Below, piece after piece: positions 15,997 to 53,124 of a DNA stretch of 64,000 nucleotides. This DNA is from Bacteroidales bacterium (GTDB lineage: Bacteria > Bacteroidota > Bacteroidia > Bacteroidales > UBA12077): the NCBI GenBank assembly GCA_030637515.1, contig DAOWGM010000095.1:8171-72170 (forward strand), in the 5' to 3' direction. The notes beneath the pieces were generated by a model that was not told where the DNA came from, made no database searches, and worked only from the letters and a program-made list of their open reading frames with translations. Position numbers and translations under genes: made by a program. How positions within the stretch are numbered: the stretch's first letter is position 1; every line of letters starts with the position of its first letter.

Positions 15997-17142
15997 TTAA
16001 TACATCGAAGTTCCAAGTTGGAACATTGGCATGTACATGGCAATAAGGATAACTCCAACAAGCAAACCAACAAAAATAATCATGATGGGTTCAAGCACAC
16101 TGCTTAGCATTCCAATTCGGTGCTCCAATTCTGTGGAATATTGATCGTTTAAATTGTTAAATACTGTATCGAGCTGATTAATTTCTTCTGCTACTTTTGT
16201 AAGTGAAACTGTTCGTTTGTCAAATATAGGAAATTGCTCCATGCTCTTATGCAATGGTTTCCCATGCAGAACATCCTTTTCGATAGTTGTAAGTGCTTCC
16301 TGATACGGATAGAATGTAATCATATTTTTCACAAGCTGAATTGCCCTTAACATAGGCGTTTTTGAACTAATAAGCAATGCCATAGATTGGCAAAAGCGTG
16401 CCAGATATATTTTCTGAACCAAAACTCCTGCTACAGGAATTCGTAATAATAGTTTGGATGAAAAATTCCGATACCAGTTCTTCTTACGAACCAGAAATAA
16501 AACAATTGTTATGGTTATAATTATTAGGAATACCAATCCCAGGTATTCTGAAAAAACATTCGACAGCTTTACAACAGCCTTTGTAAGTGCCGGCAAATCG
16601 CCCTTGAATCTTTTAAATACATCGACAAACATAGGTACAATAAAGTTCATCATAAAAATTACTGCACCTATTGCTGTTACCAATACCAACAAAGGATAGG
16701 TTAATGCACTTGAGAATTGTTTTTTTTGCTTAATCTTTTTAGAGAAAAATATGGTAAGGTCTTTTAAAACATTGTTTAGTTTTCCGCTTTCTTCACCAAT
16801 TTTAATACTAAAATATTCGTATGGAGTAAACATCCCTGATTGTTCCATTGCATCTGAAAGACTTACACCTTCTAAAATATGATTCATCAGGTTTTCAAAA
16901 ATCTCTTTCTCTTTCTTTTTAGTTTGCTCGGCAACTACAATATCCATTGCTGTGCGCACATCTGTTCCAGATGATAACAGGATACTTAATTCGGAATAAA
17001 ACTGCTCCTTTTTCTGGTCTTTTAAGCCTTTCTTGCCAAAAGATATATCCTTATTCAGAAATTCGAAGACTTGCTTTAAATCGCTGCCTTTTGATTGCTG
17101 CGAAGCATTCTTCTTTTTTATATCTTTTAAATCGAGGCTCAT
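15997..17142 (-). CDS. Type II secretion / type IV pilus platform protein (GspF/PilC family)
   Basis: 381 aa with two repeated T2SS-F-type halves, each a soluble helical segment followed by TM helices. It ends in the typical ...AMYMPMFQLGTSM. Confidence 0.85.
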   Translation of the reverse strand: MSLDLKDIKKKNASQQSKGSDLKQVFEFLNKDISFGKKGLKDQKKEQFYSELSILLSSGTDVRTAMDIVVAEQTKKKEKEIFENLMNHILEGVSLSDAMEQSGMFTPYEYFSIKIGEESGKLNNVLKDLTIFFSKKIKQKKQFSSALTYPLLVLVTAIGAVIFMMNFIVPMFVDVFKRFKGDLPALTKAVVKLSNVFSEYLGLVFLIIITITIVLFLVRKKNWYRNFSSKLLLRIPVAGVLVQKIYLARFCQSMALLISSKTPMLRAIQLVKNMITFYPYQEALTTIEKDVLHGKPLHKSMEQFPIFDKRTVSLTKVAEEINQLDTVFNNLNDQYSTELEHRIGMLSSVLEPIMIIFVGLLVGVILIAMYMPMFQLGTSMY

Positions 17143-17621
17143 TATTTAAAAACCTGTTTGTTAATGTTGCTTTCGTTTTGGTAATCTTTATAAAATGCAA
17201 ACGGAAGTATTTCCTTATGATACTTTACATTAAATGATAAATGTGTAAGCATTCCGGTATTACCGTTTTGCAATTTATATTCCAAATTGGAATATTCCAG
17301 TGCAAAGGTATCGGTTTTTTCCTGATATTTTCTAAGAATTCCAACATCACTAAATTCGTAAATACATTCACTTGTTTTGTTTTTAAAACGTAATTCGTAA
17401 ATGGAATATTCAATATTATCATATCGTTCAAAATCGGTGTTTAAAACCGATCTGAGCTGAATTAATTCTGCATTGGTATCGTAATCTTTTAATATTCGCT
17501 GGTTGGTTTGTGTAAGCTGAAAATACAGATTTAAAGCCATAACAATAATAATACTTGTAATGGCAAGAGCCACAAGTATTTCAACAAAAGTATATGCGCT
17601 TATCTTTCTCATGTATTTCAA
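17142..17621 (-). CDS. Pseudopilin/minor pilin with prepilin-type N-terminal motif
   Basis: KISA/YTFVEILVALAITSIIIV is a class III signal peptide-like motif with Glu at +5, followed by a hydrophobic helix. Confidence 0.65.
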   Translation of the reverse strand: MKYMRKISAYTFVEILVALAITSIIIVMALNLYFQLTQTNQRILKDYDTNAELIQLRSVLNTDFERYDNIEYSIYELRFKNKTSECIYEFSDVGILRKYQEKTDTFALEYSNLEYKLQNGNTGMLTHLSFNVKYHKEILPFAFYKDYQNESNINKQVFK

Positions 17622-17695
17622 TTGGCCTTCTCGTTATGATTTTTTGTTTTACCCCAACCCAATTGGGAACCAAAAAATCAAAACTATATTATTTT

Positions 17696-18064
17696 CTACT
17701 TACTTTTCTCAATAATAATGAGCTCGTTTTGCTCAAATAATTTTTGGTTACGTGAATTATACGCACTGTAATTTATCTGAAACAATTCATCGTATTTTTC
17801 ATATTCAGAAACGATACGTTTAACCGTAATATTACCAAATGTAAAATCCTGATCGTAATATTCTTTTTCCGAAACAGTTTGTACCATAACATTGCTCGTT
17901 GCAAAGTAAGCTTTTGTTCTTAGACTGTTATTGCTGTTCTTACTAATATTCAGAATGATTAAAAAAGCCATTGAAAAAGTAATGGTAATTATAAGCATAG
18001 CAACAATGGTTTCAACCAAAGTTGATGCTTGTATTTTATGACTTAGCCTTAGTTTAAACTGCAT
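17696..18064 (-). CDS. Pseudopilin/minor pilin-like protein
   Basis: KIQA/STLVETIVAMLIITITF is a prepilin-like N-terminus with Glu at +5. Confidence 0.55.
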   Translation of the reverse strand: MQFKLRLSHKIQASTLVETIVAMLIITITFSMAFLIILNISKNSNNSLRTKAYFATSNVMVQTVSEKEYYDQDFTFGNITVKRIVSEYEKYDELFQINYSAYNSRNQKLFEQNELIIIEKSK

Positions 18065-18106
18065 CTAATAATAGAATTAAAGAATCAAAATTACTCTAAT
18101 TTAAAG

Positions 18107-18117: not shown

Positions 18118-18129
18118 CCGATAGAATTG

Positions 18130-18156: not shown

Positions 18157-19539
18157 AATGCATGTAATTTTCAATATTTCTTTTTAATGATAAAGCTATC
18201 ATTTACAAAAGGATTTTTATCTTCGCAACTTTTTAATTTAATATAAAAATTGTGAAACGTACTTATCATCCTTATATTCCTATTCTTTATAATTTAGGAG
18301 TTCTCGAAAAAGGTTTTGTACAGGAAATATCTTCGAGCACTTTATACGAATGGAAAATCAAAGACTTTGATTCTCTCTATGGAATCGATCAGGTTACGAA
18401 GCATGTTCCTCAATTTGATTTGTTAAATGACTACATTACAAAAAAGAGTTTATCCAAAATAATAAATGCTACTTACAGAATTTATCATGTATATTCTAAA
18501 ATCTATTCTGAAATTAGATTTAAACGAACTAGTATTGAAAAATACCAGAAACAGATTGTTTGTACCATTGAAAATATTAAAGGAACAATTGGTTTTGATA
18601 AGGCTCTTAAAGCATTTCATATTACTTACCAACAATTTTACAGGTGGAAAAATAAAGTAAACTGTAGTCTGAACGAAAAATTTCTTTGCCGAAAAAGGCA
18701 TCCATTACAACTTTCAGTAAAAGAACTGAGAATAGTTAAATCTTATTTATTTAATCCTGAATATACATTCTGGCCAATAGCATCGATATATTATATGATG
18801 TTACGTAACAAACATGCCTTTATGAGTTTGACAACCTTTTATAAGTACGCCAGATTATTTAGTTTTAAACGACAAAAGCCTGATTGTAGAAATAAAAAAT
18901 ACTCTACAGGTATACGAGCAAGTAAACCTTTTGAAATTTTACATGCTGATGTCACAATTTTTAAACCCTTAGATAATACTAAAGTTTATATTTACTTTAT
19001 TGTTGATAATTTCTCAAGAAACATACTTGGATGGAAAGCTTCTTTAAAGCTAAGTGCCAAAACCTCATTCGAAAACTTACAGGAAGTTTACAATAAATAT
19101 AATATAAAAAGCAAAACTGGCGCAGTTCTAATGACCGATGATGGTAGTGAAAATAAAGCCGAAGTGGATGAGTATATTCAAAGCATTCATATGAAAAGAT
19201 TAATTGCTCAAAAAGATATTATTTATTCGAACAGTATGGTTGAATCTGCTTTTTACAGATTAAAATATCAATTTCTATTCACAAAAAATCTATCTGACTT
19301 TCCTGAAACATACAAGTATCTTGAAATTGCAATTCCTGAATACAAAAACAGACCACTTTCTGCTTTATTTGGGTTAACTCCCAACGAAGTTTGTGAAGGT
19401 GCAATTCCTGATATGAATGGTTTTAAACCACAAAAACAATATTCTAAAACCATTCGGATTATAGAAAACCAGCAATGTAAAGAATGTGAATAAACACATT
19501 CAAATTGAATTCCTTCCTATTCCCATAAGTTAAAAATTT
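18157..19539 (+). mobile_element. IS element (boundaries approximate)
   Basis: A single DDE transposase gene of opposite orientation interrupts an otherwise co-directional locus. I could not define clear terminal inverted repeats. The coordinates are simply the interval between flanking REP-like copies. Confidence 0.4.
18252..19493 (+). CDS. DDE transposase with integrase-core (rve) domain, IS3/IS481 superfamily
   Basis: LHADVTIFK (D), DNFSRNILGWK, MTDDGSEN (D) and NSMVESAFYRLK (E) fit the rve DDE triad order. It has a GTG start and an N-terminal HTH-like region. Confidence 0.8.
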   Translation: MKRTYHPYIPILYNLGVLEKGFVQEISSSTLYEWKIKDFDSLYGIDQVTKHVPQFDLLNDYITKKSLSKIINATYRIYHVYSKIYSEIRFKRTSIEKYQKQIVCTIENIKGTIGFDKALKAFHITYQQFYRWKNKVNCSLNEKFLCRKRHPLQLSVKELRIVKSYLFNPEYTFWPIASIYYMMLRNKHAFMSLTTFYKYARLFSFKRQKPDCRNKKYSTGIRASKPFEILHADVTIFKPLDNTKVYIYFIVDNFSRNILGWKASLKLSAKTSFENLQEVYNKYNIKSKTGAVLMTDDGSENKAEVDEYIQSIHMKRLIAQKDIIYSNSMVESAFYRLKYQFLFTKNLSDFPETYKYLEIAIPEYKNRPLSALFGLTPNEVCEGAIPDMNGFKPQKQYSKTIRIIENQQCKECE

Positions 19540-19614
19540 GTCATGCTGAGTTAATCGAAGCATAGGCAAATTCCCTAATTTTAAAAGCTCATCCTTCGAC
19601 ATGCTCAGGATGAC
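19540..19614. repeat. Pair of inverted REP-like elements
   Basis: gtcatgctgagttaatcgaagcatag (19540-19565) and its inverted relative catccttcgacatgctcaggatgac (19590-19614). Confidence 0.7.
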
Positions 19615-19683
19615 AAAATCCAAAACAACATGAATTGATTTCTTGCAAATCTTTTCTAATAAGCTATAAATACTTATTTTTGT

Positions 19684-19709: not shown

Positions 19710-19857
19710 ATTTCGATTATAAACGTTATGGGCTGGGTACTTTTTATAACAAAAAAGGTCCAAGCAAAATGCTTGAACCAATTCTTTGTTTATATATTTT
19801 TTATCTAATCGCTTGCGCCAGTTGGGGGCTTCTTATATCTTGCTGTATATTCCTATT

Positions 19858-20502
19858 TTACCAAATTATAACCCAATAAATCATTTCATTACTTTTATCA
19901 CTTAATGCTGCACCTTTAGAGTAACCATGTTTCCAATTTTCAGGCATATATTCACCCTTCGTTAATTGTTTTTCCTCTAAAAATATTCCTGACTTAGAAT
20001 CTAAAACGTAAATAGTAAAATCTTCTGGAAGTTTACAAACTGTATTATTAGTTTGATGAGTCGAAAAGTTAGAAAAGTTAGGAATCGGCATAAAATCATC
20101 AAAATGTTCTTGTTCAATTAATTCAATTTTAATCTCACTATTATCTGGATATCCATAATTTTCAATTGTAGAAAACCTGTTTAAAACAAGAAGAGAATCA
20201 TTATTGGCTAAATACTTTGCAATGGCAAGATTCTCCAATCTTTTCTTTTCTTCTTCAAATGACACATCATCATAAGCAAATACTACTTTCAAATTATACT
20301 CTACATCTGGATTTAAACTCCATGTACAATTTAATCGTTTAGAATTACCCTTTTCTGGAAAAAAACTCACATATTTTGCAAAAACATTTTTCACTCGGTT
20401 ATAATCAATATCCTTTTCAAGAAACCAGAATTGGTCTTGATTTCTATTAGTACAAGAAAAACCTATAATTAAAGTAATAATTAATACAGTAATACTTTTC
20501 AT
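19858..20502 (-). CDS. Lipoprotein, candidate immunity protein for the upstream RHS toxin
   Basis: Lipobox-like MKSITVLIITLIIGFSC. It lies immediately downstream (33 nt) of the RHS gene, the canonical position for a cognate immunity gene. No recognisable family. Confidence 0.4.
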   Translation of the reverse strand: MKSITVLIITLIIGFSCTNRNQDQFWFLEKDIDYNRVKNVFAKYVSFFPEKGNSKRLNCTWSLNPDVEYNLKVVFAYDDVSFEEEKKRLENLAIAKYLANNDSLLVLNRFSTIENYGYPDNSEIKIELIEQEHFDDFMPIPNFSNFSTHQTNNTVCKLPEDFTIYVLDSKSGIFLEEKQLTKGEYMPENWKHGYSKGAALSDKSNEMIYWVIIW

Positions 20503-20535: not shown

Positions 20536-23500
20536 TTACTTTCCGTCAAAAAACAAATCTTCAGCCATTTTAATTATTTTCAAACCAGTATTGACAGCAC
20601 CTTGGGAACCTTCTTTCTTTTTCTTACCATAAGAGTAAGTCTTTTTCCTAATGTATTGTCTTGTCTGAACCCCAGGTGATAAAGCTTGTTTCATAATTTT
20701 TCCAAAGAGAGTCTTAGGTTGATCATCAACTCGAGCCAAATTCATTGACTCCACATCTGTCACTTGATTATCTTTTTTAGTATACATTGTCTTAACCTCA
20801 AGGGTTTTATCTCTAGAGGTAATTGTGTTAATATCTGGGGCTCCTTCTCCTTCACCGTAAACCGTTGTTACATCGGTCTCAACAACTTTCTCTTCTTTAG
20901 TTACTTTCTTATAACCATTATCATTCATCTTCTCTCCAATCTCTTCATCTGACATTTCCACTTTGTCTACATCTATCATTCCGTCCCCTTCATCTCTAAA
21001 GATGTAAACGTTATCTGGCTCATCAGTTTCTTCATATAGTAATAAATTACCTTCTTCTGTAAAATAAAAATCATCAGCATTCATTCCCATGAAATCAATA
21101 AATCTTATAGGATTATTATCAGCATAAACAAATGGTGATTGTTGAGAGAAATTTTCCGCAAGCGGGTCAAGTGTGTGGAATCTGCCTAAAGCAGCATCGT
21201 AGAATCTCGCCCCGTAATCGTACCAATCGAGCTTAGTACCATTAATTGCGTCGTCTTGCAACTCTTTACCATTGTATTTATATTTATTATCGGTTTGCGA
21301 ACTAAAAGCATATGCTGCAATAGACATTCCGAAAGGATAATAATGATTAACCTGCGATTTAGCTGCTATATTACTTGAATCGTAAAATGCAACACGTGTA
21401 TTTCCTAAATGATCTTTTAAGAAATATTCGTATGTAAATGTATTTGCATTTGCCACTTTAACCATTCCTTCCGATGTTAAAATATAATCCAACGAATCTT
21501 CATCGTAAACCAGATTTCCAATGTACTGTTTTATAATTCGGTTTGCATTAACCTTTGCAATTTTTGTGCCGTTGGCTGTATAAAAATATGAAATTGTATC
21601 GGTTCCTCCAATAATCTGTTCCGGTAAATTCAGGTAATTATAAATTACTGTATCAATTCCTTTGTTTCGGTCTTTTATCATATTGCCATTGGCATCGTAC
21701 TCGTAATCTACTGTATTTATTAAATCCTTAAAACCAACTGTATCTTCACCTATATCGCTTACGGTGTATAATTGGTTGGAATTATTGCTATTGTAATATG
21801 CATATGTCATATCGTCCATTACGGTCTCGCCTTCGCTATAACGTTTCAATTGCTTTATGTTACCGTTTTTGTCGTAATCAACTAATGCTAAATCAAAACT
21901 AAGGGTATTACACCATCCTGAATTAAATGTTTGGTGATCTGCCTCCTGTAAACGATTTACATTATCGTATTGAAATACATATGCCTGTGTTTCGTTGTAT
22001 TTATCATCAATCCAGCGCATAGCAGAAATATTACCGTTATACTGAGCTGTTCCGTTTTCTCCAATACTTGCGTTATCATAAGCTAATTCCATAGCAAACA
22101 GGTCTTTTGCCTGTCCTTCTTGCTGAAGATCATCCATTTTGTTAATTTGGGTTAACCAACCACGAATGTTGTATTCAAAATTTACATTCTGCAAATAGGT
22201 TGTATCCGAAGTTCCATGAATATCTTTTTGAATTAATTGCCCTAACTCATTGTATTCGTTATGGCTTATTAAAACTTTTGGATTACTGCCCACTTTATGA
22301 TACTCGTGAGTTAATCGCATGGCATGATCATATTCAAACCATTGTTTAATACTTATAGTATCGTTAAATGGAATTGATGTATTAAAAGCTTTTTCATGTA
22401 TTTGCCATGTTTCAAGAACATTACCCACAAAATCATATTTTGAAAGTACCAGATCAGATTTATTCAATAGAGGATTTTCTGAATAGGAACGCAATGGTCT
22501 GTACTTTTTATCGTAAAAAATAATACTTGTTATAAGACTATCGGTTCCCAAGATGCGGATTTTGCTTCCTGTTACCTGCCCTTTTACAGCTAAGTTAATT
22601 TCTGATATGGGATAATCGATATTATCGATGCTTTTGCAGTAAGTCTGCAAGGCTCCGTTATCATCGAAATTATAATTATCGTAATAGGTAGCCGTAAGAA
22701 TTATATCGTTAATACCTAATATAGGGAAACACTGATTGGTATATCCAAGATATGTTCCAGTATAATTATTATCAATACTTTCGGTAAATATGCTTGTCAT
22801 TTCAGAATTTAGATAATTCTGCATGTTTTCCTGTCCCGTATAAGTAATATCGTAATAAATACCTGTTATAACAGGACGATTAAAACGATCATATTTGGTA
22901 AACATCCATTCGCTGTTTCCCCGAAGGTTTCCATCCTGAGTTAATACCAAACGATCGCGACTATCGTAAACCATATAAACAGGATCGGCTCCCGGAATCT
23001 TTTTTGTGATCATTCGATTACGATAGTCGTATTTGTATGAATAACACAAATTACTGAGAATATCTGAATTTACTATTCCTGTGGTGATAATTAGATTTAC
23101 CGCCTTGGGAGGTATTACATAACGCAATAATCCAAAATCGTCGTACACATAACAGGTTTTAAGCTTTAAATCAGTGGTGTCTGATACTTTTAAAACAACT
23201 TGACCTAATTGATCTTTGTATTCGGCGCTCCATACTCCATTTTCGTCACGGGTTGCATTTTTATAGGTTGTAGCTCTTTCGTAATAACCTGAGTTTGTAA
23301 GATTGCCATTGGCATCTACTTCAAACAGAATAACTTCATCTGTATTGTTAGTTTCGTAGGCAAAATGAACAGATTTGTCTGAATCATATCCTCTTTGCGC
23401 TTGCCATGTTGTTCCCGGTGCTCCTTGTTGTAATACCCTATTTAACGGAGATTCCTCAAACTCAATGGTTGACCATGGCTTTGTATCCGATGCTCTGTCA

Positions 23501-29324: not shown

Positions 29325-29380
29325 TTTTATATTAATATTTTAATGTATTCTTAAATGAATCTTTTGTATAAAAAGTGATC

Positions 29381-29658
29381 GAAAGTAGTTATTAATGGCG
29401 AGCTAAGAAATGTGTTTTATAACACATTCGTGTTATTGTAAAAAAGATAAGCGTATGGATTTTATATATAAACGCAAAATAGATTTAAGCTTCTGGAATT
29501 TTATTAACAAAACCATTTTCTTAAAACTTAGTGTTGACCTTTGTCTTATAAGTTGTGAACAAAATCCGTGATTGAGTAAATCTAAAAATATGAAATTAAA
29601 CGTAATTCAGACCCAAGGGTCTCTTTTTAAGAAATTTATATTAATTCTAAATAAAAAA
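29381..29658 (-). promoter_or_regulatory. Conserved leader/promoter region, copy B (upstream of the 1812-aa gene)
   Basis: It is collinear and of equal length with 50129-50406. Identical blocks are attaacaaaaccattttcttaa (29503-29524) and cgtatggattttata (29452-29466). Palindromes lie at 29409-29428 and 29609-29622. Confidence 0.55.
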
Positions 29659-43908: not shown

Positions 43909-44394
43909 TTACTTTCTTTTTGTGGGACTTGGTTGCTTTTTTTTACAAGTAACCCAATTATATAGATAGTATATAGTTAAGAAGCTAAAGTTGAGAGATA
44001 TAAAAGATATTAGGATTTCTCCACAATCAATAGGTACTTCATTAATAGAAATAAAATCACATGGAATAGGGATGATATATAATAAGATCTGAAATATCCA
44101 ATAAAAAATAAAACAACATATAAATGAAATTATTATTACAAAAATTTTATATGTGATTTTATTATCTATTTTTTTTGTAAAAGTTGAAATAAAAATTATT
44201 ATCCCCAAATAAAAATATATTTTATACTTTATTTTCAAACTACATCCAAAAGAATCACATTTAATGTGTTTTATACTTTCAATCGAAGGCAATAATGAAA
44301 AATACTTTATTAGATATTTTTCTAAAAGAACATAGATAAAACAGAAAACAACAATATATAGAATATATTCAAAAGTTTTTTTCTTTTTTAACAT
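43909..44394 (-). CDS. Polytopic membrane protein, candidate immunity protein for the upstream RHS metallopeptidase toxin
   Basis: 161 aa with about 4 TM helices. It starts 19 nt downstream of the RHS stop. No family recognised. Confidence 0.35.
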   Translation of the reverse strand: MLKKKKTFEYILYIVVFCFIYVLLEKYLIKYFSLLPSIESIKHIKCDSFGCSLKIKYKIYFYLGIIIFISTFTKKIDNKITYKIFVIIISFICCFIFYWIFQILLYIIPIPCDFISINEVPIDCGEILISFISLNFSFLTIYYLYNWVTCKKKQPSPTKRK

Positions 44395-44412: not shown

Positions 44413-47400
44413 TTAGAAATGCCATATTTTTCTGCTTTTAAACCAAGTAATTTTTGAAAATCCAGTATTTACCGACCTAACAACATTAAAAATTGATGTC
44501 CCGAATGTTGAACCTAATTCTATGGGTTCTAAATAAACTCTTTCATTTAATGGATTAAAAGTTTCAGTAGTAGCACCTGCCCATATCCTACCTAATCCAC
44601 TATACCCATCTCTAATCTTTGTCCTTCCATATACTGAAGTTAAGTAGTTTTCAAATCCAACTGCTTCTTTCTCCAATTCCAATGTGGACATTTTACTAAA
44701 TTCATCAAATTGTGACTGAAATGCATGAAAAAGCTCATGTCCCAAAATACTATACGTATCCAAATTCATCCCAAACTTTTGATTTTCTAACAAACCTCTG
44801 ATACCAACTGTGCTCATAAAAACGGTTGTCCCTTCAAAATGTGGTTTATCAAATACACTTTTAGTTTGCCTTATTGTGTAAATTGTACCTGAGTTATCAA
44901 GTGCCTTGTAAACTTGGCTACCTAAGCTTGTGCGACGCATTAATTCGATCGATTGCCACATTTTGTGTTGAAAACTACTACTCCCTTTTATAATAATCTT
45001 TCTTCCATCAGGATCAATAGCCATGTTTGGTATATTTCCCATTCCTAAATAAGGAGAATAGAACTGCCCGGCTGGATCGGGAGATGTCCAACGTCCAATT
45101 CTGGAGTCCCATAAACGAGCCTCGAACTGGTTTGTCTTAGTTTCCTGGTCGTACTCGGCAAACTGCCCTTGGTAACCAAACCTGTAACTGCCCGGTGTTC
45201 CTTGCCTACCCGGAATAGCCATGCCATATGGGTAATAATCGGTATAACTATACAATTGTATATTGTTTGAAGCATCGTTTCCAAAAGTCGCACGAACATT
45301 ACCCAAATGATCACTTAATTCGTAAATACTTTGGCTATTTCCTGTGTAACTTTTATTATATAAACCCAACCGTTCGTCACCATAAATAGGTAGCTCGGTT
45401 TGGTCGGCTACAATATCAGGATTATTAATTTTTGTATACATACTTAATAATGTCCCACTTGCGTCACTAACATAAAATGTTATTAGTTCAGGATCACTTG
45501 TATAATCTATTTTCTTAACCCTGTAACCCATGTCATCATAAAAATACTCAGCTAATGGAATTGTATATGTTGAATCTTTGTAAACGCCTGTTACCATACC
45601 ATAAGCATCGTATTTATAATAACTGGCTAAACCATCAAATATCTTACTTTTAATTTGCCCAATAGGGTTATATGCAAAATTGTATGTGCCGTTTTCCATA
45701 TCGCCCAAATTTTCATCATCTATAACAATATCGGCAGCATTATCCTGTAAATAACTTAACTGGTTTTTTTGAATTAGTTCATCGTATGCATATTCAAAAT
45801 CATCCATTATTGCACCTGTATAACTGTATCTTTTTAATGTAAGTAAATTTCCGTTTGCATCATAGGTTAAGTTTCTGATACTTTGTGCATTTCCTGTATA
45901 ATTAAAATCAGTACTAATATTATATTTACCAAATAATGCTTCTTTTAAAAAATTTTGCGAATCATATGCGTATTTATACAACCACTGTTCAGTAGAAGTA
46001 GTACTCATTTGATCGTATATTGCATCACGCGTTTTCCAACGTTGAGCTTTAATCTTACCATCGTATAAATCATTATCAGGGCTTGATGTTATATTAATTC
46101 CTGATCGTAGATAATCGCCACTATAATAATCGAGGCTCATACCAAACATATCCTGTTCAAATGAATTAGCATAACCATCTTTACCGGGATCATTTTCATC
46201 AATTGAAGGATGATTAATGCTTTTTAACCAACCATTAATATTATACACGTAATCGATACCCTGCATGTTTTCTGCAATTTCGACTCGTTTCAGTGGCCCA
46301 TGAGCATAATACTCATACTTCGCTTGTAGTTGTTCATTTTTAATTGAACCATCTGCATTATATTCAATAGTCTTTACTTGCGATAATCTTAAATTAGCAT
46401 CATAAGTATATTTATGATCAAAACGTTCTGAATAATTACCTTTATCATATATAACTGAAGTTACGTTTCCATAAAAATCATATTCGTAATCAATGGTAAC
46501 TAATCCCAGATCTTTAATATCACGTGCAATCCATTCAATTTTACTATCATAAGTATAACTATACCATGTAATTGAGTTCTTGCTCCAAGTTTTAGAAACT
46601 TTACCTACTACAAATTTTTGAAATAGTCCAAAATCATTCAATGTCTCATCAGGATAATCGTATTCATATCCTGTAACATCCTCACAGAGATTTGGATCTA
46701 ATTCTGTATCCGGATCTAATAAAGCACTAAATATTATTGATGCAGTTTCATTATACTCTCCAATTTCAGTTACACGTCCACCGTTGTCATAATTGATAAA
46801 TGAAAATTTCGAACATCCTTGTTGTTTAGAATTTTGGGAAAATCGAATACTTCCATCTTTTCTATATATATATTCTATATATCCTTGATCCGGAGAATAT
46901 GAGCTAATTAACCATCCTAAAGAATTGTAGGTATATGTTGTTTTCAATTCAGGGTTTAATTCCATCGTTGCTTTTGGAGAATACGATTCTATTAGACGTC
47001 CCGCCTTATCATAAATGAAAAAGGCATGATGAGTATAAATAATATCGTAATAAAATAAAAAATCATCTGTGATATTTGATTTTATTCTGTAAAAACCTGC
47101 CGGCATAGGATTAGTATAATTTACAACCTCCCCTGTCTCAAGATTTGTAATTGACTCTATATATTCTATATATGTTGAAAAAGCACTGGGTATTGATAAA
47201 TGAATATCAACATATCCACAATCTGCAGGTGCAATTTGTCTTATACTATGTACATGTCCACCTCCATTTCCATTTCCTTTACAAGTTGCAATAATATTAC
47301 CCTTTTCATTTTTATAAATTACTGATATTTTATCTTCGGGATCAACGGTAATTGTTTTCGTCAGATTTCCCAGATCAAGATCTATTCCTAAATATCCTTC

Positions 47401-50067
47401 AAATGGTCTCAAGTCAGTTTGAGATGCAGGCATTGTAAAACTTTTTGTTTCGTGTCCGCTACCCATTTTATGATGCTCGCCTGCCATAGCACTTTTGCGT
47501 GCTTGTCCAGTGATTTTGCTGTACTCAACACGTGAATACGGGTATTCACTTTCAGGAACATAGGCTTCCATAGTGTTGTTATTACTATAATACCAACCTA
47601 CACTTCCCGGGAGATTGCTGCTTACAGGATCAGGATTATCCAGTTTATCTCCATCAAATTTTTCGTAAGAATAGGTATCGTTAGTGTTATCTGTTATAAA
47701 ACCAATCTGGTAGTTTAAATTAGGTTTATCTACTACAGCAGGTAAAGTTGAAATTGCAGCACGGCCCAACTCATCGTATACTGTTTGTGCAACAGTAACA
47801 GTACCATCAGTCATATTTTTACTTTGAGACTGCACTTGCTTGCCCATAAGGTCGTAATACGACTTTCCTTGAGCAATTACATTTTCGTTTTCGTCAAATG
47901 CATAACTTTCTGTCCAATTTTTATTTAGACCTGTTTCTCCTACACCAAACTGAAGTATTGTAACGGGTAATGATCCAACTTTTATACTTCCGTTTCTTGT
48001 CGAATTTGTAGTATTCTCGGCGCAAATAATTGTGAATTCCTCACTACCAGAACCTAACATTGGGGTAACTGTAATCCATTCTTCACTTATTTCAGATATT
48101 GTCCATATGCAATCTGCATTAACCTGTATAGAGTATGTTTCGTTGCCTCCACCAATAAACACATTATCCTCGCTAAGACTTTCTATATATTTAATAATTA
48201 TTTTTACTTCTTCAGCATTACTCCAGATAGACTGATCCTCCTTTAACTGAGCTCTTAAATAAAGGGTTGTATCTTCTGTAAATTCCGTTTCAAAAAGAAA
48301 TCTAGGAATAGGGACTTCAGGATATTCAGGATCTATTAACTCCTTTGTATTTTTTGTAAAAGTCCAATCTGTATTTGTCCCGTTTTGTTCTGTTTGCCAA
48401 TAATAAGTATATTCAAAATTCATTTCCGGAACATGAACAGTTGATTTGCTGTCAAAATAAATAATTGCTGGAAGTGTATTAAAAGGATCTTCGTAAACTT
48501 CTACATCAACTATTCGTGCATCGCTCCACAATCCACTTTCATTACTTTTCTGCCTTAAATATACACTTTCGGGTGAAGTCAAAATCTTTTCAGGAGAAAT
48601 ATCTGAAGTACTGGTTCCTATTTCCTTTGTTTGCCAATACATGGTGCATCCGCTGCTTGCATTTGGTTTACTAACTTTAGTACTTCCTATAATTTTTTCT
48701 ATGGAAGGTAATGCAGGTATTGATGGTTTTGAATATACATTTACGTCAATAGTTATATGATCACTCCACAAGCGACTAATATTATGCCATTGTCTTAGGT
48801 AGGTTTTTCCATTTGTTAGAAACTTTCTGTTAGGCTCAATATTGTGGTAGTTTGTTCCATCCTTTGTATCCTGAAAATGAACGGAGTATCCTTCGGAGGG
48901 TTCTGGTTTAATTACAATAGTAGAACCATCTGCATAATTTATTATTGGATTGGAAGAAATTGGTGGTTTTGAATAAATATTAACTATAACCGCCCTGGTA
49001 TCGCTCCATAATCCACTGTTATTGTGTTTTTGTCTTAAAAAAACGGTTGTGTCAGAATTAAACGTTCTGCTTAATTGGGTTTTCGTAGTATCAATTCCGT
49101 CAGAAGAAGACTGCCAGTACATTGTACAACTGTAATATTCTTCAGGTTGAGTGACCTGAGTTGTATCTTCTAAATAATTAATTACAGGTTCCTCTGGAGT
49201 AGGAGGCGTATGGTATATTTTTCCTATAAAAACCATCGTGGCATCACTCCAGAATCCACTGATATTATTCTTTTGTCTTAAATAGATTGTTTCCCGCGAA
49301 GTAAATGTTTTTTCTAATGAAACATCTGAAGTGCTGGTTCCATCAGAACTGGTTTGCCAATACATGGTGCAGTTTAGAATTGCTTCAGGTTTTTGGATCC
49401 GTATTAATCCATCTTCGTATATTTTTTCCGGGTTAGCAGGAGTTTCAGGGTTACTATATACAACCACATCAACCAAAGAACAAGTTTCACTCCAAACTCC
49501 TGATGCCGTATTTTTAGCTCTTAAATAATAAGTTCCTGTTGATATAGCGTCGTAGTAATTCAACTCTGATTTTGAAGTGCTTGTGCCACAAGATGTTCCC
49601 TGCCAATAGTATGTTACATACTTAGGAGTAGTCTCAAGAGGTTTGCTCAAAACAGTTTGTCCGTCGTTATATTTAATAATTCTTGGATTTCCAGGAGGAT
49701 TTGTAACAGGCGCCCCTTCCTGAGTAACAGGAATTTTAGCTTTTATTTCTCCTAGATGCACAAGGTTTATGAAACCTGTTCTTTCACTGGTTGTATTATT
49801 AGTAGCAATGGTATATGAAATAGTCCCATCAAAACTACCCGAACCACTTGCTGAAATCCAATATGCACTTCCTTCAGCTGTCCAAGAGCATTTAATTACG
49901 TCAACATCTACAGTTCCTTGACTTAATCCGTATTGTAAATTTAAAGTTGAAGGAGTTAATACAAATTCACACAGACGTAATAATATTTGTGCATTTGTTA
50001 TTGAGATAGTAAAAAAGAGTAAAATAAAAATTATACTGCTCTTTTTAAGACAGGCAATTCGTGTCAT
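44413..50067 (-). CDS. RHS/YD-repeat toxin with Sec signal peptide, BACON-like domains, six tandem 80-aa repeats and a C-terminal HExxH metallopeptidase domain
   Basis: Signal peptide ...LLFFTISITNAQ. Two BACON-like segments are present. Six repeats of the type CTMYWQTSSDGTSTSD...YLRQKNN.SGLWSD span about aa 119-625. The YD repeats include YDELGRA, YDKAGRL, YEYDFYGNV, YDANLRL and YDANGNL. The core end is DHLGNVRA...YYPYGM...EARLWDSRIGRWTSPDPAGQ...NMAIDPDGR. A tail of about 195 aa follows, carrying ILGHELFHAF and a downstream Glu (EKEAVGFEN). Confidence 0.9.
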   Translation of the reverse strand: MTRIACLKKSSIIFILLFFTISITNAQILLRLCEFVLTPSTLNLQYGLSQGTVDVDVIKCSWTAEGSAYWISASGSGSFDGTISYTIATNNTTSERTGFINLVHLGEIKAKIPVTQEGAPVTNPPGNPRIIKYNDGQTVLSKPLETTPKYVTYYWQGTSCGTSTSKSELNYYDAISTGTYYLRAKNTASGVWSETCSLVDVVVYSNPETPANPEKIYEDGLIRIQKPEAILNCTMYWQTSSDGTSTSDVSLEKTFTSRETIYLRQKNNISGFWSDATMVFIGKIYHTPPTPEEPVINYLEDTTQVTQPEEYYSCTMYWQSSSDGIDTTKTQLSRTFNSDTTVFLRQKHNNSGLWSDTRAVIVNIYSKPPISSNPIINYADGSTIVIKPEPSEGYSVHFQDTKDGTNYHNIEPNRKFLTNGKTYLRQWHNISRLWSDHITIDVNVYSKPSIPALPSIEKIIGSTKVSKPNASSGCTMYWQTKEIGTSTSDISPEKILTSPESVYLRQKSNESGLWSDARIVDVEVYEDPFNTLPAIIYFDSKSTVHVPEMNFEYTYYWQTEQNGTNTDWTFTKNTKELIDPEYPEVPIPRFLFETEFTEDTTLYLRAQLKEDQSIWSNAEEVKIIIKYIESLSEDNVFIGGGNETYSIQVNADCIWTISEISEEWITVTPMLGSGSEEFTIICAENTTNSTRNGSIKVGSLPVTILQFGVGETGLNKNWTESYAFDENENVIAQGKSYYDLMGKQVQSQSKNMTDGTVTVAQTVYDELGRAAISTLPAVVDKPNLNYQIGFITDNTNDTYSYEKFDGDKLDNPDPVSSNLPGSVGWYYSNNNTMEAYVPESEYPYSRVEYSKITGQARKSAMAGEHHKMGSGHETKSFTMPASQTDLRPFEGYLGIDLDLGNLTKTITVDPEDKISVIYKNEKGNIIATCKGNGNGGGHVHSIRQIAPADCGYVDIHLSIPSAFSTYIEYIESITNLETGEVVNYTNPMPAGFYRIKSNITDDFLFYYDIIYTHHAFFIYDKAGRLIESYSPKATMELNPELKTTYTYNSLGWLISSYSPDQGYIEYIYRKDGSIRFSQNSKQQGCSKFSFINYDNGGRVTEIGEYNETASIIFSALLDPDTELDPNLCEDVTGYEYDYPDETLNDFGLFQKFVVGKVSKTWSKNSITWYSYTYDSKIEWIARDIKDLGLVTIDYEYDFYGNVTSVIYDKGNYSERFDHKYTYDANLRLSQVKTIEYNADGSIKNEQLQAKYEYYAHGPLKRVEIAENMQGIDYVYNINGWLKSINHPSIDENDPGKDGYANSFEQDMFGMSLDYYSGDYLRSGINITSSPDNDLYDGKIKAQRWKTRDAIYDQMSTTSTEQWLYKYAYDSQNFLKEALFGKYNISTDFNYTGNAQSIRNLTYDANGNLLTLKRYSYTGAIMDDFEYAYDELIQKNQLSYLQDNAADIVIDDENLGDMENGTYNFAYNPIGQIKSKIFDGLASYYKYDAYGMVTGVYKDSTYTIPLAEYFYDDMGYRVKKIDYTSDPELITFYVSDASGTLLSMYTKINNPDIVADQTELPIYGDERLGLYNKSYTGNSQSIYELSDHLGNVRATFGNDASNNIQLYSYTDYYPYGMAIPGRQGTPGSYRFGYQGQFAEYDQETKTNQFEARLWDSRIGRWTSPDPAGQFYSPYLGMGNIPNMAIDPDGRKIIIKGSSSFQHKMWQSIELMRRTSLGSQVYKALDNSGTIYTIRQTKSVFDKPHFEGTTVFMSTVGIRGLLENQKFGMNLDTYSILGHELFHAFQSQFDEFSKMSTLELEKEAVGFENYLTSVYGRTKIRDGYSGLGRIWAGATTETFNPLNERVYLEPIELGSTFGTSIFNVVRSVNTGFSKITWFKSRKIWHF

Positions 50068-50128
50068 AGTATGTTATAATAGGTTAATAAACTAGTAAAT
50101 TCCCCCGTTTTGAAATAAACAAGTGTAC

Positions 50129-50406
50129 GAAAATAGTTATTTAAGCTTATGCCACAAATATGTTATAAAACATATTTGTGGTTTTTCAAAAAGATGAACG
50201 TATGGATTTTATAAATAAACGCATGAAATAATTAGTCTAATCAAAATCTAATTAACAAAACCATTTTCTTAATGCATTGCGTTCATTATTATCTTAGAAG
50301 TTATGAACAATATTATATTTTTGAGAGAATTTAAAAATCTAAATTAAACGCATTACAGACCTAAAGGTCTTAATTTTAGAAATTTGTATTGATTCTAAAT
50401 AGAAAA
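50129..50406 (-). promoter_or_regulatory. Conserved leader/promoter region, copy A (upstream of the 1884-aa RHS gene)
   Basis: It is homologous and collinear with 29381-29658. It has a 13-bp-stem hairpin ccacaaatatgtt-ataa-aacatatttgtgg (50152-50181) and the palindrome agacctaaaggtct (50357-50370). It fills the gap between the gspE-like stop (50415) and the RHS ATG (50067). Confidence 0.55.
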
Positions 50407-50414
50407 CAGGGATT

Positions 50415-51848
50415 TTAAGAATTTATTAAAATAGAATAAATTTCTTCGATGCTTGTATCACCTCTTTCGAATAACTCAAATGCAGAACCTGATAATGTTT
50501 TGAAATTGCTCATCTTTTCAATTTCATTCTCATCAATGTTTTGAGCTTTAATGTTATCTGCCAGTTCATGATCAATTGGAATTATTTCATAAACTGCTTT
50601 TCTTCCTTTGTAGCCTGTATAATAACAAGCCTCACAACCATTTGCTGTAAAATGCTCTTTCAGTTTTGATGGTGCTATATAATTGCGTGGGTATAATTCC
50701 GGATCAAATTCGTGTTTTTCTTTGCATTCAGGACAAAGCATCCTTACTAATCTTTGTGCTACCGATAAGTTCAATGTGCTTGCTACTAAAAATGGTGGTA
50801 CGCCCATATCTATCAATCGAGAAATAGTTCCCCAAGCAGAGTTTGTATGAATGGTAGATAAAACCAAATGACCTGTTAGTGCTGCACGAACAGCCATTTT
50901 GGCTGTTTCTCCGTCTCGAATCTCTCCCAGCATAATTACATCGGGATCTTGACGTAAAAAGGTTCTTAGTGCACTTGCAAAAGTCAATCCAATACTTTCT
51001 TTTAGTTGGACCTGATTAATTCCTTCAAGTGTATATTCAATGGGATCTTCAATGGTAACAATATTGGAGTATTCTTTATTTAGAATTTTTAACGTGGCGT
51101 ACAAAGTAGTCGTCTTTCCAGAACCTGTTGGTCCACTAATCAAAATTATTCCGTGTGGCTTTTTAATTCCTTCGGTATAATTTTTTAATTGATCGGGATT
51201 CATTCCCAGATACTCAATATTAATATCGGTTGCATCTTTACTTAATAAACGTAATACAACCTTTTCTCCATATAATGTAGGTAAAACTGAAACACGAATA
51301 TCAAATTTCTCATTGTCGGTATGAAAGAATATACGGCCATCTTGTGGCAATCGTTTTTCGGCAATATCGAGATTGGCTTTTATCTTTATCTTATTAATTA
51401 TAGCCGGGTAGTCTTCTTTCTTTAAAACGTAGCGTTCAATTAGTTTGCCATCAATTCGCATACGTACACGGCAACGTTCCTCGTATGATTCTATATGAAT
51501 ATCCGAGCTTCCTGTTTCGTTGGCTTCGGTAATCAGATTTATTAAGAAATCTTCTGATTTAGCAGTAAACTCTGTTGCTTTTGAACTACTTCCGGGTTTT
51601 TTCTTACGATAATATTTACCCAATGATTTTGATATAATTTCTGAATCTGTTTTTTCTAATTCAATGCTTTTACCAAACAATAACTCAAGTTCGTCTTTTA
51701 CTGTTTCAATTAATTCAGAATCTGAAATATAAAAGCTTAGTAAATTATTTTCTGCTTTTTGGGGAATTATATGATAATGCCAAGCCTGTTCGGCAGTAAT
51801 AGTCTGTTGTAATTCTGTTGAAATAAGTATATAGCCGTCCTGAATCAT
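50415..51848 (-). CDS. Type II secretion / type IV pilus assembly ATPase (GspE/PilB family)
   Basis: An N-terminal GSPII_E_N-like domain is present. Walker A is SGPTGSGKTTTLYA. Asp box and Walker B regions (DPDVIMLGEIRD), a His box (LVLSTIHTN) and a tetracysteine CPEC...CEAC are visible. Confidence 0.9.
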   Translation of the reverse strand: MIQDGYILISTELQQTITAEQAWHYHIIPQKAENNLLSFYISDSELIETVKDELELLFGKSIELEKTDSEIISKSLGKYYRKKKPGSSSKATEFTAKSEDFLINLITEANETGSSDIHIESYEERCRVRMRIDGKLIERYVLKKEDYPAIINKIKIKANLDIAEKRLPQDGRIFFHTDNEKFDIRVSVLPTLYGEKVVLRLLSKDATDINIEYLGMNPDQLKNYTEGIKKPHGIILISGPTGSGKTTTLYATLKILNKEYSNIVTIEDPIEYTLEGINQVQLKESIGLTFASALRTFLRQDPDVIMLGEIRDGETAKMAVRAALTGHLVLSTIHTNSAWGTISRLIDMGVPPFLVASTLNLSVAQRLVRMLCPECKEKHEFDPELYPRNYIAPSKLKEHFTANGCEACYYTGYKGRKAVYEIIPIDHELADNIKAQNIDENEIEKMSNFKTLSGSAFELFERGDTSIEEIYSILINS

Positions 51849-52366
51849 TAAAAAAGATTTAATTTATCTAAAATTAGATAATCGTTATAGAGATTAAACT
51901 TAATAAAAAATTGAGAAATCAGAACTATTATTAAAAAAAGAGACTGTAAACCAGCCAGAGGCACTCTTTCATTTTTATATATTTTAAACGCTTTAAGTAG
52001 AAAATAACCGATTAAACTAAAAATTACCGAGCATAAAAAGAAAACAATAAAATTTAGAGGTGAAAACAAAGGAATAATCATGATTAGAAAAAGTAAATCA
52101 CCGAAACCAAATACTGACTTAAAGATATTTTGTTTTTTTAATTTGAATCGTGAATAAAGATAGATAATGCCAAGCTGAAAAAATACAAGAATGGTATTTC
52201 CCGAAGCATTAATAAATAAGTTTAATAATGTATTTTCTGAAACAGAATTAAAGAGTATCAATCCAAATCCAGCAAGAAAAAGAATCCAGGAAACTGCTTG
52301 AAAACGAAAATCTTGATAAGAAATTAATAGGAGTACAATTAATAATAGTATAGTAATGTAAAGCAT
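51848..52366 (-). CDS. Prepilin peptidase-like (A24 family) membrane protein, short form
   Basis: 172-aa polytopic protein with the two Asp motifs expected for A24 peptidases (SYQDFRFQAVS and FGFGDLLFL). It has no N-terminal methyltransferase region. It overlaps the gspE-like gene by 1 nt. Confidence 0.5.
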   Translation of the reverse strand: MLYITILLLIVLLLISYQDFRFQAVSWILFLAGFGLILFNSVSENTLLNLFINASGNTILVFFQLGIIYLYSRFKLKKQNIFKSVFGFGDLLFLIMIIPLFSPLNFIVFFLCSVIFSLIGYFLLKAFKIYKNERVPLAGLQSLFLIIVLISQFFIKFNLYNDYLILDKLNLF

Positions 52367-52369
52367 ATA

Positions 52370-52765
52370 TTAATCTTTCACTACCTCACGAAGGTTTTTA
52401 TCCTGATCAATCTCCCATACATTGAAAGTACCATCGCCATCAAAATCGACAATAGAAGTTGCCTTTGCCCTAAATTCATTCACAGATGACTCTACAACTT
52501 CGATAATATAGTTGGCCGTACCACCTTCAGAAACCAGCTTTACATGCTCGTATCCGATTTCTTCAAAGTCGTCAGAATACCTGGAATACATATAAAAATA
52601 GCTTCTTTCAAGCATATGTATATGATCAAGCTGTAATTTAGCTTCTGTACTCCTTGCACGAGAGATAAGAGGCATTAGATTTGGTATAGCAAGTAACACC
52701 AATATTCCAATAATAATTAAAACAACCAACAGCTCCGTTAATGTAAATGCTTTTAACTTTTTCAT
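52370..52765 (-). CDS. Major pilin/pseudopilin with prepilin-type N-terminal cleavage/methylation motif
   Basis: The likely start is ATG 52765, giving MKKLKA/FTLTELLVVLIIIGILVLLAIPNL with Glu at +5. This is the first gene of the locus. Confidence 0.75.
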   Translation of the reverse strand: MKKLKAFTLTELLVVLIIIGILVLLAIPNLMPLISRARSTEAKLQLDHIHMLERSYFYMYSRYSDDFEEIGYEHVKLVSEGGTANYIIEVVESSVNEFRAKATSIVDFDGDGTFNVWEIDQDKNLREVVKD

Positions 52766-53124
52766 AACCATTAAGATTAAAAATCGATTCAAAATTAATC
52801 AAATCAATTCATTTTGAAAGAAATATAACTAAATATTTTTTATTTAATGATGACACCTTTTCGGACACCTATTACTAATGGAGATAATGTAAGTGATTGT
52901 ATTATATGTAATACTAAAATATCTTCGACTCCCGCCAGCTAAATCAATATAGATGATTATAGCCAATTTGATTTTAAAAAAATAAATAGAAATATTCAAT
53001 GTCAGAAGCTAACTATGTATTTGTATTATTTAGCTTAAATTAAAATAGGTTGACTAAATGTTGACTAAAAAGAAAAACGAACAATATTAAGTTGCTCGTT
53101 TTCTATGTATTATATTTTTCACTT

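Follow-up and report, generated by a model that had tools for sequence, protein, structure and literature searches.

Bacteroidota carry a type IV filament operon that the literature calls the putative type II secretion system (T2SS) of Bacteroidetes, described in Cytophaga hutchinsonii (CHU_3191-3201) and Flavobacterium johnsoniae (Fjoh_0611-0622) (Wang et al. 2017, PMC5553014). In C. hutchinsonii, mutants use cellulose poorly and are impaired in adhesion, without a substrate having been named (PMC5553014). Denise et al. 2019 (PMC6668835) found that the Cytophaga system invariably groups with type IVa pili instead of T2SS, and suggested that it may have arisen independently as a secretion system. 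Here, we analyze a window of 64,000 nt of Bacteroidales DNA (the whole stretch under study, from contig DAOWGM010000095.1), in which an operon of this kind, at window positions 15997-52792, is interrupted by two cassettes that encode very large Tc-like toxins with RHS repeats. Known delivery of RHS toxins proceeds via a type VI secretion system (T6SS), Tc complexes, or the Gram-positive cell wall. The operon itself is already known (PMC5553014, PMC6668835), as are, from the portions of Zhang et al. 2012 considered here (PMC3482391), RHS toxins with a signal peptide, SpvB and a β-propeller. The pairing of cassettes and operon recurs in many other species, which hints at, but does not prove, an export route for such toxins that has not been described before. 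No report of recurrent cassette linkage to the Bacteroidota filament operon was found in the searchable literature, in line with the initial annotation of this DNA, which knew of no such combination; the term "Rhs" occurs 0 times in PMC5553014, and no description of the OmpH and lipoprotein partners of the cassette was found in the searchable literature either.

Linkage of toxin cassettes to a Bacteroidota filament operon

To place the locus, we assigned domains with Pfam and NCBIfam profile scans, in which negatives cover open reading frames (ORFs) of at least 100 amino acids (aa). Every gene of 15997-52792 lies on the minus strand, with the sole exception of an insertion sequence (IS) transposase, and the ORF list bears out the initial gene map in coordinates, order, and strand. 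The genes are given below from the pilin gene to gspF; counts out of 80 refer to the related loci introduced further on.

52370-52792, minus: major pilin/pseudopilin-like protein (Pfam N_methyl, E 8.8e-6); first operon gene in 69/80 loci
51848-52366, minus: short A24-like prepilin peptidase, predicted to span the membrane several times, with a GFGD motif (Pfam Peptidase_A24, E 1.1e-4); position kept in 69/80 loci
50415-51848, minus: GspE/PilB-type assembly ATPase (Pfam T2SSE, E 9.9e-129)
44413-50067, minus: RHS1884, RHS toxin of 1884 aa (BACON, E 6e-14; TIGR03696, E 8.2e-11)
43909-44394, minus: 161-aa protein with several predicted transmembrane segments, encoded just past the 3' end of the RHS1884 gene and a candidate for its immunity protein; no family match
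43310-43846, minus: Skp/OmpH-like periplasmic chaperone (Pfam OmpH, E 4.5e-22)
42706-43326, minus: 206-aa lipoprotein (lipobox IIFSC); no family match
37575-42686, minus: G1720, TcB-like giant of 1703 aa that has a putative signal peptide and, at its C-terminus, an Ig-like domain of choice-of-anchor-D/ASH type
35122-37020, minus: secretin of 632 aa (P0121) with N0/STN and N domains (Pfam Secretin, E 6.6e-38; STN, E 1.3e-15)
33910-35121, minus: 403-aa bitopic protein with a cytoplasmic N-domain, one transmembrane segment (234-258), and a periplasmic C-domain; gene adjoins the secretin gene in 79/80 loci
33378-33917, minus: 179-aa N-terminally anchored protein, positional analogue of PilO/GspM, no family match; kept in 68/80 loci
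32435-33385, minus: 316-aa lipoprotein with Fn3/Ig-like domains (Pfam Ig_Rha78A_N; fn3 and Big_13 weak); kept in 72/80 loci
31954-32445, minus: 163-aa N-terminally anchored protein, no family match; kept in 72/80 loci
31187-31747, minus: 186-aa secreted MORN-repeat protein (Pfam MORN_2, weak); kept in 52/80 loci
29917-31215, minus: 432-aa protein whose hydrophobic N-terminus is pilin-like but has no Glu+5, by position an analogue of GspK/PilX; kept in 55/80 loci, before the two small pseudopilin genes
23886-29324, minus: G1812, TcB-like giant of 1812 aa, with a signal peptide, a ~1100-aa core, and a ~700-aa PKD/Ig-like C-terminal array
20536-23880, minus: RHS1114, RHS toxin of 1114 aa (Pfam DUF6443, E 3e-39; TIGR03696, E 1.2e-13)
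19858-20502, minus: 214-aa lipoprotein (lipobox IIGFSC), encoded just past the 3' end of the RHS1114 gene and a candidate for its immunity protein
18252-19493, plus: IS transposase (rve/DDE; Pfam rve integrase core, E 4.5e-9)
17696-18064, minus: minor pseudopilin-like protein of 122 aa (QA/STLVE; N_methyl, E 0.0026, below the cut-off); position kept in 40/80 loci
17142-17621, minus: minor pseudopilin-like protein of ~156 aa (SA/YTFVE; Pfam N_methyl, E 4.5e-5)
15997-17142, minus: GspF/PilC-type inner-membrane platform protein (Pfam T2SSF, E 2.9e-45, two stretches)

With the cassettes and the IS set aside, the order is pilin, A24, GspE, secretin, 403-aa protein, 179-aa protein, Fn3 lipoprotein, 163-aa protein, MORN protein, 432-aa protein, two small pseudopilins, and GspF. 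This is the Bacteroidota-specific type IV filament operon known as the putative T2SS of Bacteroidetes, matched to the system of PMC5553014 by its component list; common to both are the secretin, GspE, GspF, a major pilin, an A24-like peptidase, small pseudopilins, and phylum-specific "hypothetical" partners, and the difference is that the operon in the window and in its closest relatives is interrupted by toxin cassettes. The initial annotation had proposed a T2SS or type IV pilus-like locus. The secretion genes are indeed there, as the window contains the secretin, GspE ATPase, and GspF platform that form the canonical T2SS core (matches to Secretin, STN, and Secretin_N, the last in the secretin ORF taken as 35122-37038 in the domain scan, together with T2SSE and T2SSF). 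A canonical T2SS, on the other hand, it is not: GspC, GspL, and GspM go unrecognized, with no T2SSC, T2SSL, T2SSM, or PilM/N/O match of the 403-, 179-, 163-, and 316-aa proteins in Pfam or NCBIfam, and the published phylogeny places the system with type IVa pili (PMC6668835). No window ORF matches PilM, PilN, PilO, or PilP, and the window holds a single T2SSE-family ATPase; a PilT-type second or retraction ATPase is found in neither the operon nor the window and could be encoded elsewhere in the genome.

The initial labels PilM/N-like, PilO-like, and PilX-like received no support from profile searches and rest on position and topology. By positional analogy, the 403-aa protein would occupy the place of GspL or of a PilM-PilN fusion; its family profile has no PDB match, and a classification of the 403- and 432-aa proteins from profiles of 34 homologues each was abandoned with nothing meaningful retrieved from the PDB. 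The family consensus of the 432-aa protein begins MLKAG/ALxYA (slashes mark predicted cleavage sites). The pseudopilin set comprises three N_methyl proteins, all with Glu+5 as first proposed, and this one large pilin-like protein without it. The major pilin-like protein has a probable start near 52765 and a cleavage site KA/FTLTE, and in all three prepilin-like proteins residue -1 of the predicted site is Ala, not the usual Gly. The A24-like peptidase is only 172 aa long and matches the A24 peptidase model alone, below the cut-off (23.1 versus 26.5 bits), with no methyltransferase match.

At least 580 species-level loci encode a relative of the secretin (scan of one genome per GTDB species), and we compared the best 80 of these, labeling their ORFs by BLASTP against the window proteins only. 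The close secretin relatives, with 75-81% identity, are found in Bacteroidales and in Bacteroidetes metagenome-assembled genomes (MAGs), and the compared loci come from Bacteroidales, Flavobacteriales (Flavobacterium), Cytophagales (Hymenobacter), Sphingobacteriales (Pedobacter, Sphingobacterium), and Marinifilum. In this comparison, the 13 operon genes are contiguous over ~12 kb in the same recurrent order, with gspF as the last gene of the ancestral operon. The window operon is interrupted twice, between GspE and the secretin (module A) and between the 432-aa protein and the pseudopilins (module B and the IS). The three-piece split noted at the outset is thus real and derived, since the GspE-secretin and 432-aa-pseudopilin junctions are uninterrupted in most related loci; as a clade-specific derived state, it makes the alternative first offered, that of insertion, literally true as well. 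Both junctions are also broken in the closest relatives (77% secretin identity), which have different RHS and giant genes in them, so that the gaps appear to be hypervariable cargo bays inherited in the clade. The toxin-secretin gap of these relatives (7854-9688 in L006; 8030-8833 in L005; related loci carry L numbers) also contains ParE/HigB toxin-antitoxin and helix-turn-helix genes.

We then counted as cargo any RHS or giant ORF inside the ±10-kb secretin locus that reached both 250 aa and 80 bits. By these strict criteria, 27 of the 80 species have cargo no more than 10 kb from the secretin; among the 28 loci in which each flank extends 3 kb or more past the operon, 15 do, flanks being short, above all 3' of gspF; looser criteria give some RHS or giant match in ~36 of the 80 loci. 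Cargo-bearing loci span Bacteroidales, Flavobacteriales, Cytophagales, and Sphingobacteriales and at least five different cargo positions. Cargo is found upstream of the pilin gene in loci such as those of Flavobacterium coralii, Sphingobacterium, Hymenobacter, and Pedobacter; directly after gspF, where a giant gene starts 108-337 nt downstream, in L031, L035, L036, and L043; after the 163-aa gene in L049, L062, and L075; after the 403-aa gene in Pedobacter (L079 and L081); and, as in the window, between gspE and the secretin gene in L005-L008, L055, and L168 (Marinifilum fragile), in the last of which a giant gene immediately precedes that of the secretin. Of 37 cargo ORFs, 32 share the strand of the operon (24 loci versus 3). 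Viewed from the cassettes, operon genes lie no more than 10 kb away in 9 of the 26 of G1720 type for which the upstream flank is complete, typically in the order 432-aa protein, pseudopilins, GspF, OmpH, lipoprotein, giant, and RHS. This recurrent linkage makes functional coupling of cassettes and operon plausible.

Polymorphic-toxin cassettes of one conserved kind

The two insertions in the window are polymorphic-toxin cassettes of one conserved, largely unannotated kind. Both RHS proteins have the Rhs_assc_core of TcC/RHS polymorphic toxins, with an autoproteolysis-motif core followed by mutually unrelated C-terminal domains. RHS1884 consists of a signal peptide, a BACON/Ig-like N-terminal region, a DUF6443-like segment (weak match), the RHS shell, an Rhs core ending NMAIDPDGR, and a 196-aa C-terminal domain that contains an HExxH motif (HELFH) and weakly matches Peptidase_M91; a PDB match is to the SGS1 RHS region. 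RHS1114, the gene for which begins 5 nt past the end of G1812, consists of a signal peptide, DUF6443, the RHS shell, an Rhs core (residues 847-933) ending NNPIRFIDFMGM, and a ~180-aa unassigned C-terminal domain. The 161- and 214-aa genes are plausible immunity genes because they lie directly 3' of the toxin genes, and a ~216-aa gene likewise follows the RHS gene in L003/L004.

The make-up of the cassettes was surveyed by context look-ups of giant homologues and a metagenome contig scan with a G1720 alignment, which gave 80 G1720-type loci, many on contigs that end short. The recurrent unit is OmpH, a ~200-aa lipoprotein, the giant, and RHS: among these 80 loci, OmpH is found in 45, a lipoprotein homologue between OmpH and the giant in 48, and RHS in 49. 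The OmpH gene also precedes the G1720-type giant in L003/L004. The giant precedes RHS 39 times versus 4 in the reverse order; a DUF6443-RHS gene directly follows G1812-type giants, and the order of module A in the window (RHS, small gene, OmpH, lipoprotein, giant) recurs in L088, L091, L092, L098, L102, and L110. Since OmpH and the lipoprotein recur with giant and RHS, the Skp paralogue and the lipoprotein travel with the toxin and not with the secretin, which supports the early placing of the Skp-like gene in the toxin module. A subgroup of G1720-type giants of ~2000 aa (L109, L111, L112, L114, L118, L120, L122, L149, and L165; also L116, L123, and L131) is mostly without the lipoprotein and often without OmpH. 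Unbiased clustering of the neighbors of G1720 loci places two unannotated families (~1000 aa; ~380-1400 aa) before the giant in this subgroup and a LamG/PA14/DUF2341 family near G1720-type giants in 13 loci, with up to nine tandem copies in L123; the LamG/PA14 family and the two unannotated families may form an alternative accessory set.

Structure predictions support the assignment of both giants as TcB-like by fold, not by Pfam family membership. AlphaFold2 models G1812 residues 1-1130 with pLDDT 82 and pTM 0.83 and G1720 residues 1-1200 with pLDDT 81 and pTM 0.83. In Foldseek searches, the ten best PDB matches of the G1812 model are all of the TcB class, namely YenB (4igl, 5kis) and TcdB2-TccC3 (4o9x, 6sup, 6h6e), with a best E of 3e-21, TMq of 0.38-0.40, and prob 1.0 against TcB chains; other classes score lower (T6SS Rhs, TMq 0.10-0.14; teneurins, 0.07-0.16; TcC chains, E ~1e-5). 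The top matches of the G1720 model are likewise TcdB2-TccC3 and YenB (E 4e-12, prob 1.0, TMq 0.21-0.23), versus a TMq of 0.07 for T6SS Rhs. Pfam SpvB (PF03534) and TcdB_toxin_midN/midC match neither giant, and membership of SpvB/TcB families at the sequence level was rejected with no SpvB, TcdB_mid, or TcB retrieved in Pfam, NCBIfam, PDB phmmer, or PDB profile searches. The label "SpvB-N-like" consequently fails for the window giants as a Pfam assignment and finds backing in the predicted fold and in 2 of 42 directly scanned giant-family members, which match Pfam SpvB (best E 1e-5); RHS_repeat matches 39 of the 42. For the broader proposal of TcB/TcC-like toxins, the balance is similar, with the fold of the giants, the TcC-type layout of the RHS proteins, and the conserved pairing in its favor and the lack of Pfam SpvB against it.

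The giant families are large. G1812 itself matches PKD_6 (three times), RHS_repeat, and Ig_7 in Pfam; its ~1100-aa core is common to more than 1088 proteins annotated "RHS/YD repeat," and a profile of the core, searched against 1.84 billion representatives, retrieves 19,285 clusters (50% identity) with E ≤1e-30. Most members of this family are without a Pfam domain in precomputed listings, and Pfam has no model of the core. G1720 has more than 514 homologues of 1500-1900 aa, the named ones all from Bacteroidota and nearly all annotated "hypothetical." By BLASTP, the two giants have only an N-terminal motif of ~80 residues in common; at the level of profiles, their families are homologous over ~775 columns (hhalign probability 100%, E 3e-39). 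G1720 was originally given as 1720 aa long; its most likely start is at 42686, which gives 1703 aa (P0001). Giants and RHS proteins alike appear to carry Sec signal peptides, as first proposed for all four, judged by eye from an N-terminal hydrophobic stretch followed by A/S-Q, and the Gln after this stretch is nearly invariant in both giant families. Two candidates for a natural giant-RHS fusion, the 2488-aa ORF of L005/L008 and the 2290-aa P0391, proved to carry Ig/BACON extensions instead.

Non-coding elements adjoin both modules.

50068-50406, minus: leader copy 1, ~335-nt non-coding sequence upstream of RHS1884 (nhmmer, E 2e-89)
29326-29659, minus: leader copy 2, ~335-nt non-coding sequence upstream of G1812, ~78% identical to copy 1
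37385-37405, minus: terminator-like hairpin after G1720 (9-bp stem, 6 G-C pairs, T run; consensus match only)
19757-19779, minus: terminator-like hairpin after module B (10-bp stem, T run; consensus match only)

A 22-nt core of the leader occurs twice in the window versus 0.02 times expected by chance, and the leaders contain an AGACC-N4-GGTCT hairpin and a 10-13-bp stem with an apparent compensatory change from A:T to G:C. The leader was not found in Rfam or in 166 related loci; the one further occurrence, in L167, comes from the contig of the window itself. The folding z-scores of the two copies disagree (-4.6 versus -0.5), and we do not claim a structured RNA. Between gspE and RHS1884 and between the 432-aa gene and G1812, the terminator scan gave no terminator-like site on the minus strand; a sigma-70 promoter scan, the one promoter type covered, performed no better than on shuffled sequence. 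Finally, a 42-nt inverted repeat, 98% complementary, lies 3' of the 432-aa gene (29785-29826) and 3' of G1720 (37428-37469), with a partial copy at 19604-19630; it holds a CCTGTC-GGCA-GACAGG hairpin of its own and could be a repetitive extragenic palindrome-like or miniature inverted-repeat transposable element-like element, or a recombination scar.

Possible meaning of the linkage

We favor direct functional coupling, in which the machine exports or displays the toxins, and judge the chances of this being correct to be about even. In this scheme, Sec would carry all four giants across the inner membrane, the Skp paralogue would hold them assembly-competent in the periplasm, and giant and RHS partner would close a Tc-BC-like cocoon round the cleaved toxin; the filament machine would then export this complex or present it on the cell surface, either by way of the secretin or at it, and the PKD, Ig, and BACON arrays would bind the target. 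The location of cassettes inside the operon here and at its ends in other clades may, on one reading, reflect selection for being expressed and inherited together with the machine. The doubtful part is whether the complex would pass through the secretin: a BC cocoon is ~9-11 nm wide and secretin lumens measure ~5.5-8 nm, and because the cocoon is about as wide as the lumen or wider, we regard export of the assembled complex as doubtful and this step as rather less likely than not. A bolder proposal, which we think unlikely, has the filament machine serve as the "A component" that a Tc-like toxin without TcA is missing. A periplasmic TcB-like/TcC-like cocoon would dock on the secretin or on the tip of the pseudopilus and either be pushed out and displayed at the secretin or have its unfolded C-terminal toxin threaded through it. 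If true, this would be a new phylum-wide, contact-dependent route for RHS toxins and would provide the first natural substrates for the "Bacteroidetes T2SS."

Recurrence of the cassettes at orthologous secretion loci had been set beforehand as a test of the idea, which passes it with recurrence in at least four orders. Several observations weigh against coupling. Most cassettes are elsewhere, 17 of the 26 of G1720 type standing alone. Four of the five genomic contexts looked up are without secretion genes (the exception is Marinifilum fragile), stand-alone cassettes being found in Tenacibaculum, Wocania, Flavivirga, and a Cyclobacteriaceae MAG, and 13 of the 28 well-flanked operons have no cargo nearby. 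The counts are, moreover, not of independent events, because species-level loci share ancestry. In addition, the TcB likeness of the giants is one of fold only, with TM-scores below 0.5, no TcdB_mid or β-propeller domain was found in them by sequence, and no natural giant-RHS fusion was found. With ParE/HigB genes in the gaps and a defence island beside gspF, the neighborhood behaves like a variable region, and in L003/L004 the cassette stands beside a Tn7-like transposon. There (1-7812, Cyclobacteriaceae), the OmpH-lipoprotein-giant-RHS cassette adjoins a complete Tn7-like set of TnsA, TnsB, TniB, and two TniQ/TnsD, and it may be transposon cargo.

Much of this is what would be expected if RHS cassettes, toxin-antitoxin genes, IS, and defence islands simply collected at the borders and junctions of the operon with no mechanistic link, insertions being tolerated there, co-orientation avoiding transcriptional conflict, and the toxins leaving the cell otherwise, for instance in outer-membrane vesicles or by lysis. 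We consider such hitch-hiking possible and rather less likely than not to be the whole account. In its favor are the derived, clade-specific split of the operon, the ParE, HigB, and helix-turn-helix genes in the gaps of relatives, the IS within the locus, the Ssp defence island that abuts gspF and the tRNA-Ser gene that flanks the pilin gene, and the many cassettes located elsewhere, including beside Tn7-like genes. A site-specific version of this explanation, however, does not account for at least five positions in four orders with two giant subfamilies, nor for the 32 of 37 co-oriented cargo ORFs and the giant genes that start 108-337 nt after gspF. Furthermore, cassette and operon are adjacent in 34-54% of loci, versus a rough chance estimate of ~6% or less, which is inferred, not computed, and assumes a 5-Mb genome with up to ~10 cassettes, each 10 kb long. 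Alternatively, coupling may be indirect, with the machine acting as an adhesion or contact pilus or secreting unrelated enzymes, as has been suggested for the use of cellulose in Cytophaga, the cassettes merely co-regulated with it on account of a common role in contact-dependent competition, and the cocoon no substrate of the secretin; this we regard as improbable. The argument from cocoon size speaks for it, and the terminator-like hairpins after G1720 and module B suggest modules that end their own transcripts. It is also consistent with the adhesion and cellulose-utilization defects of Cytophaga mutants, for which no RHS substrate was reported (PMC5553014), and with the clustering with type IVa pili (PMC6668835). 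Set against it are the lack of a PilT-type retraction ATPase in the operon or window and of a minus-strand terminator-like site in the gap before either module; the co-orientation and tight spacing of cargo apply here too.

Direct coupling, if true, would offer substrates for a machine that is widespread (at least 580 species) and has mutant phenotypes but no named substrate, as well as a delivery route for toxins built on TcB-like giants, a huge family (~19,000 clusters at 50% identity) with almost no informative annotation; it would open both questions to testing in culturable soil and marine Bacteroidota. Even without the link, the OmpH-lipoprotein-TcB-like giant-DUF6443-RHS cassette is a clearly defined Sec-dependent, TcA-less Tc-like system.

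Surroundings of the locus and comparison with known toxin systems

Directly 3' of gspF, a DNA phosphorothioation defence island occupies 7473-14719 on the minus strand, and a tRNA gene stands at the other end of the locus.

13829-14719, minus: SspB (DUF4007)
10609-13839, minus: SspC
9516-10622, minus: SspD
8414-9511, minus: GmrSD_N/DUF262 NsnA-like protein
7473-8411, minus: Ser/Thr protein kinase
53125-53214, minus: tRNA-Ser(GCT) gene, immediately upstream of the pilin gene

SspA and SspE were not noted in this island. The gap between sspB and gspF (14720-15996) is 1.3 kb without an ORF of at least 100 aa, and the 2-kb composition window 14001-16000 has the lowest GC content in the window, 24%. 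A long hairpin (53073-53103) lies between the tRNA-Ser(GCT) and pilin genes.

Three other secretion or delivery routes were not found in the window. As the initial annotation had stated, no window ORF matches a T6SS family (Hcp, VgrG, PAAR, Tss). A TcA-type translocator was matched by none of these ORFs and noted in none of the looked-up homologue gene tables, and the four giants have no Pfam or NCBIfam match to a type IX secretion system C-terminal sorting domain (type A, TIGR04183/PF18962; type B, TIGR04131). With T6SS Rhs effectors (RhsA, Tse5, RhsP) and Gram-positive WapA, the window toxins share an RHS shell, an autoproteolysis core, a polymorphic C-terminal toxin, and a downstream immunity gene, here a candidate. 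They differ from T6SS Rhs in having no PAAR, VgrG, or Hcp nearby and in the low structural similarity of the giants to T6SS Rhs (TMq 0.07-0.14), much below that to TcB, and from both groups in that the window proteins would be exported by Sec in a diderm, their N-termini being putative signal peptides. The window RHS shell spans ~700-800 aa from DUF6443 to the core, which would make it TcC-sized and not a self-closing shell of ~1000 aa as in T6SS Rhs.

In the portions of Zhang et al. 2012 considered here (PMC3482391), RHS toxins, including some from Bacteroidetes, combine an N-terminal signal peptide, SpvB, and an integrin-like β-propeller and are assigned to a "TcdB/TcaC export pathway"; signal-peptide toxins are labeled as "T2SS"-exported, "T2SS" there meaning the general secretory pathway. 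Those portions mention no linkage to a specific type IV filament operon and no OmpH or lipoprotein partners. From the classes they describe, the window toxins differ in that the TcB-like part is separate from the RHS toxin and that Pfam SpvB and TcdB_mid are silent on it.

The closest likeness is to Tc toxins (TcdB2-TccC3, 4o9x; YenB-YenC2, 4igl), with which the window has in common adjacent genes for a TcB-like and then an RHS/TcC-like protein, giants whose best structural matches are TcB chains, and an RHS partner with an Rhs core and a hypervariable C-terminal toxin. Canonical Tc subunits are not known to carry Sec signal peptides and are released via lysis-type systems. The window differs in having no TcA, no SpvB or TcdB_mid Pfam matches, and putative Sec signal peptides on all components; it has in addition arrays of PKD, Ig, and BACON domains, a cassette that includes a dedicated Skp-like chaperone along with a lipoprotein, and candidate immunity genes, which would suggest bacterial targets. 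Taken together, the toxins of this locus look like Tc toxins that do without TcA and depend on Sec, and a machine of type IVa pilus ancestry may serve them.

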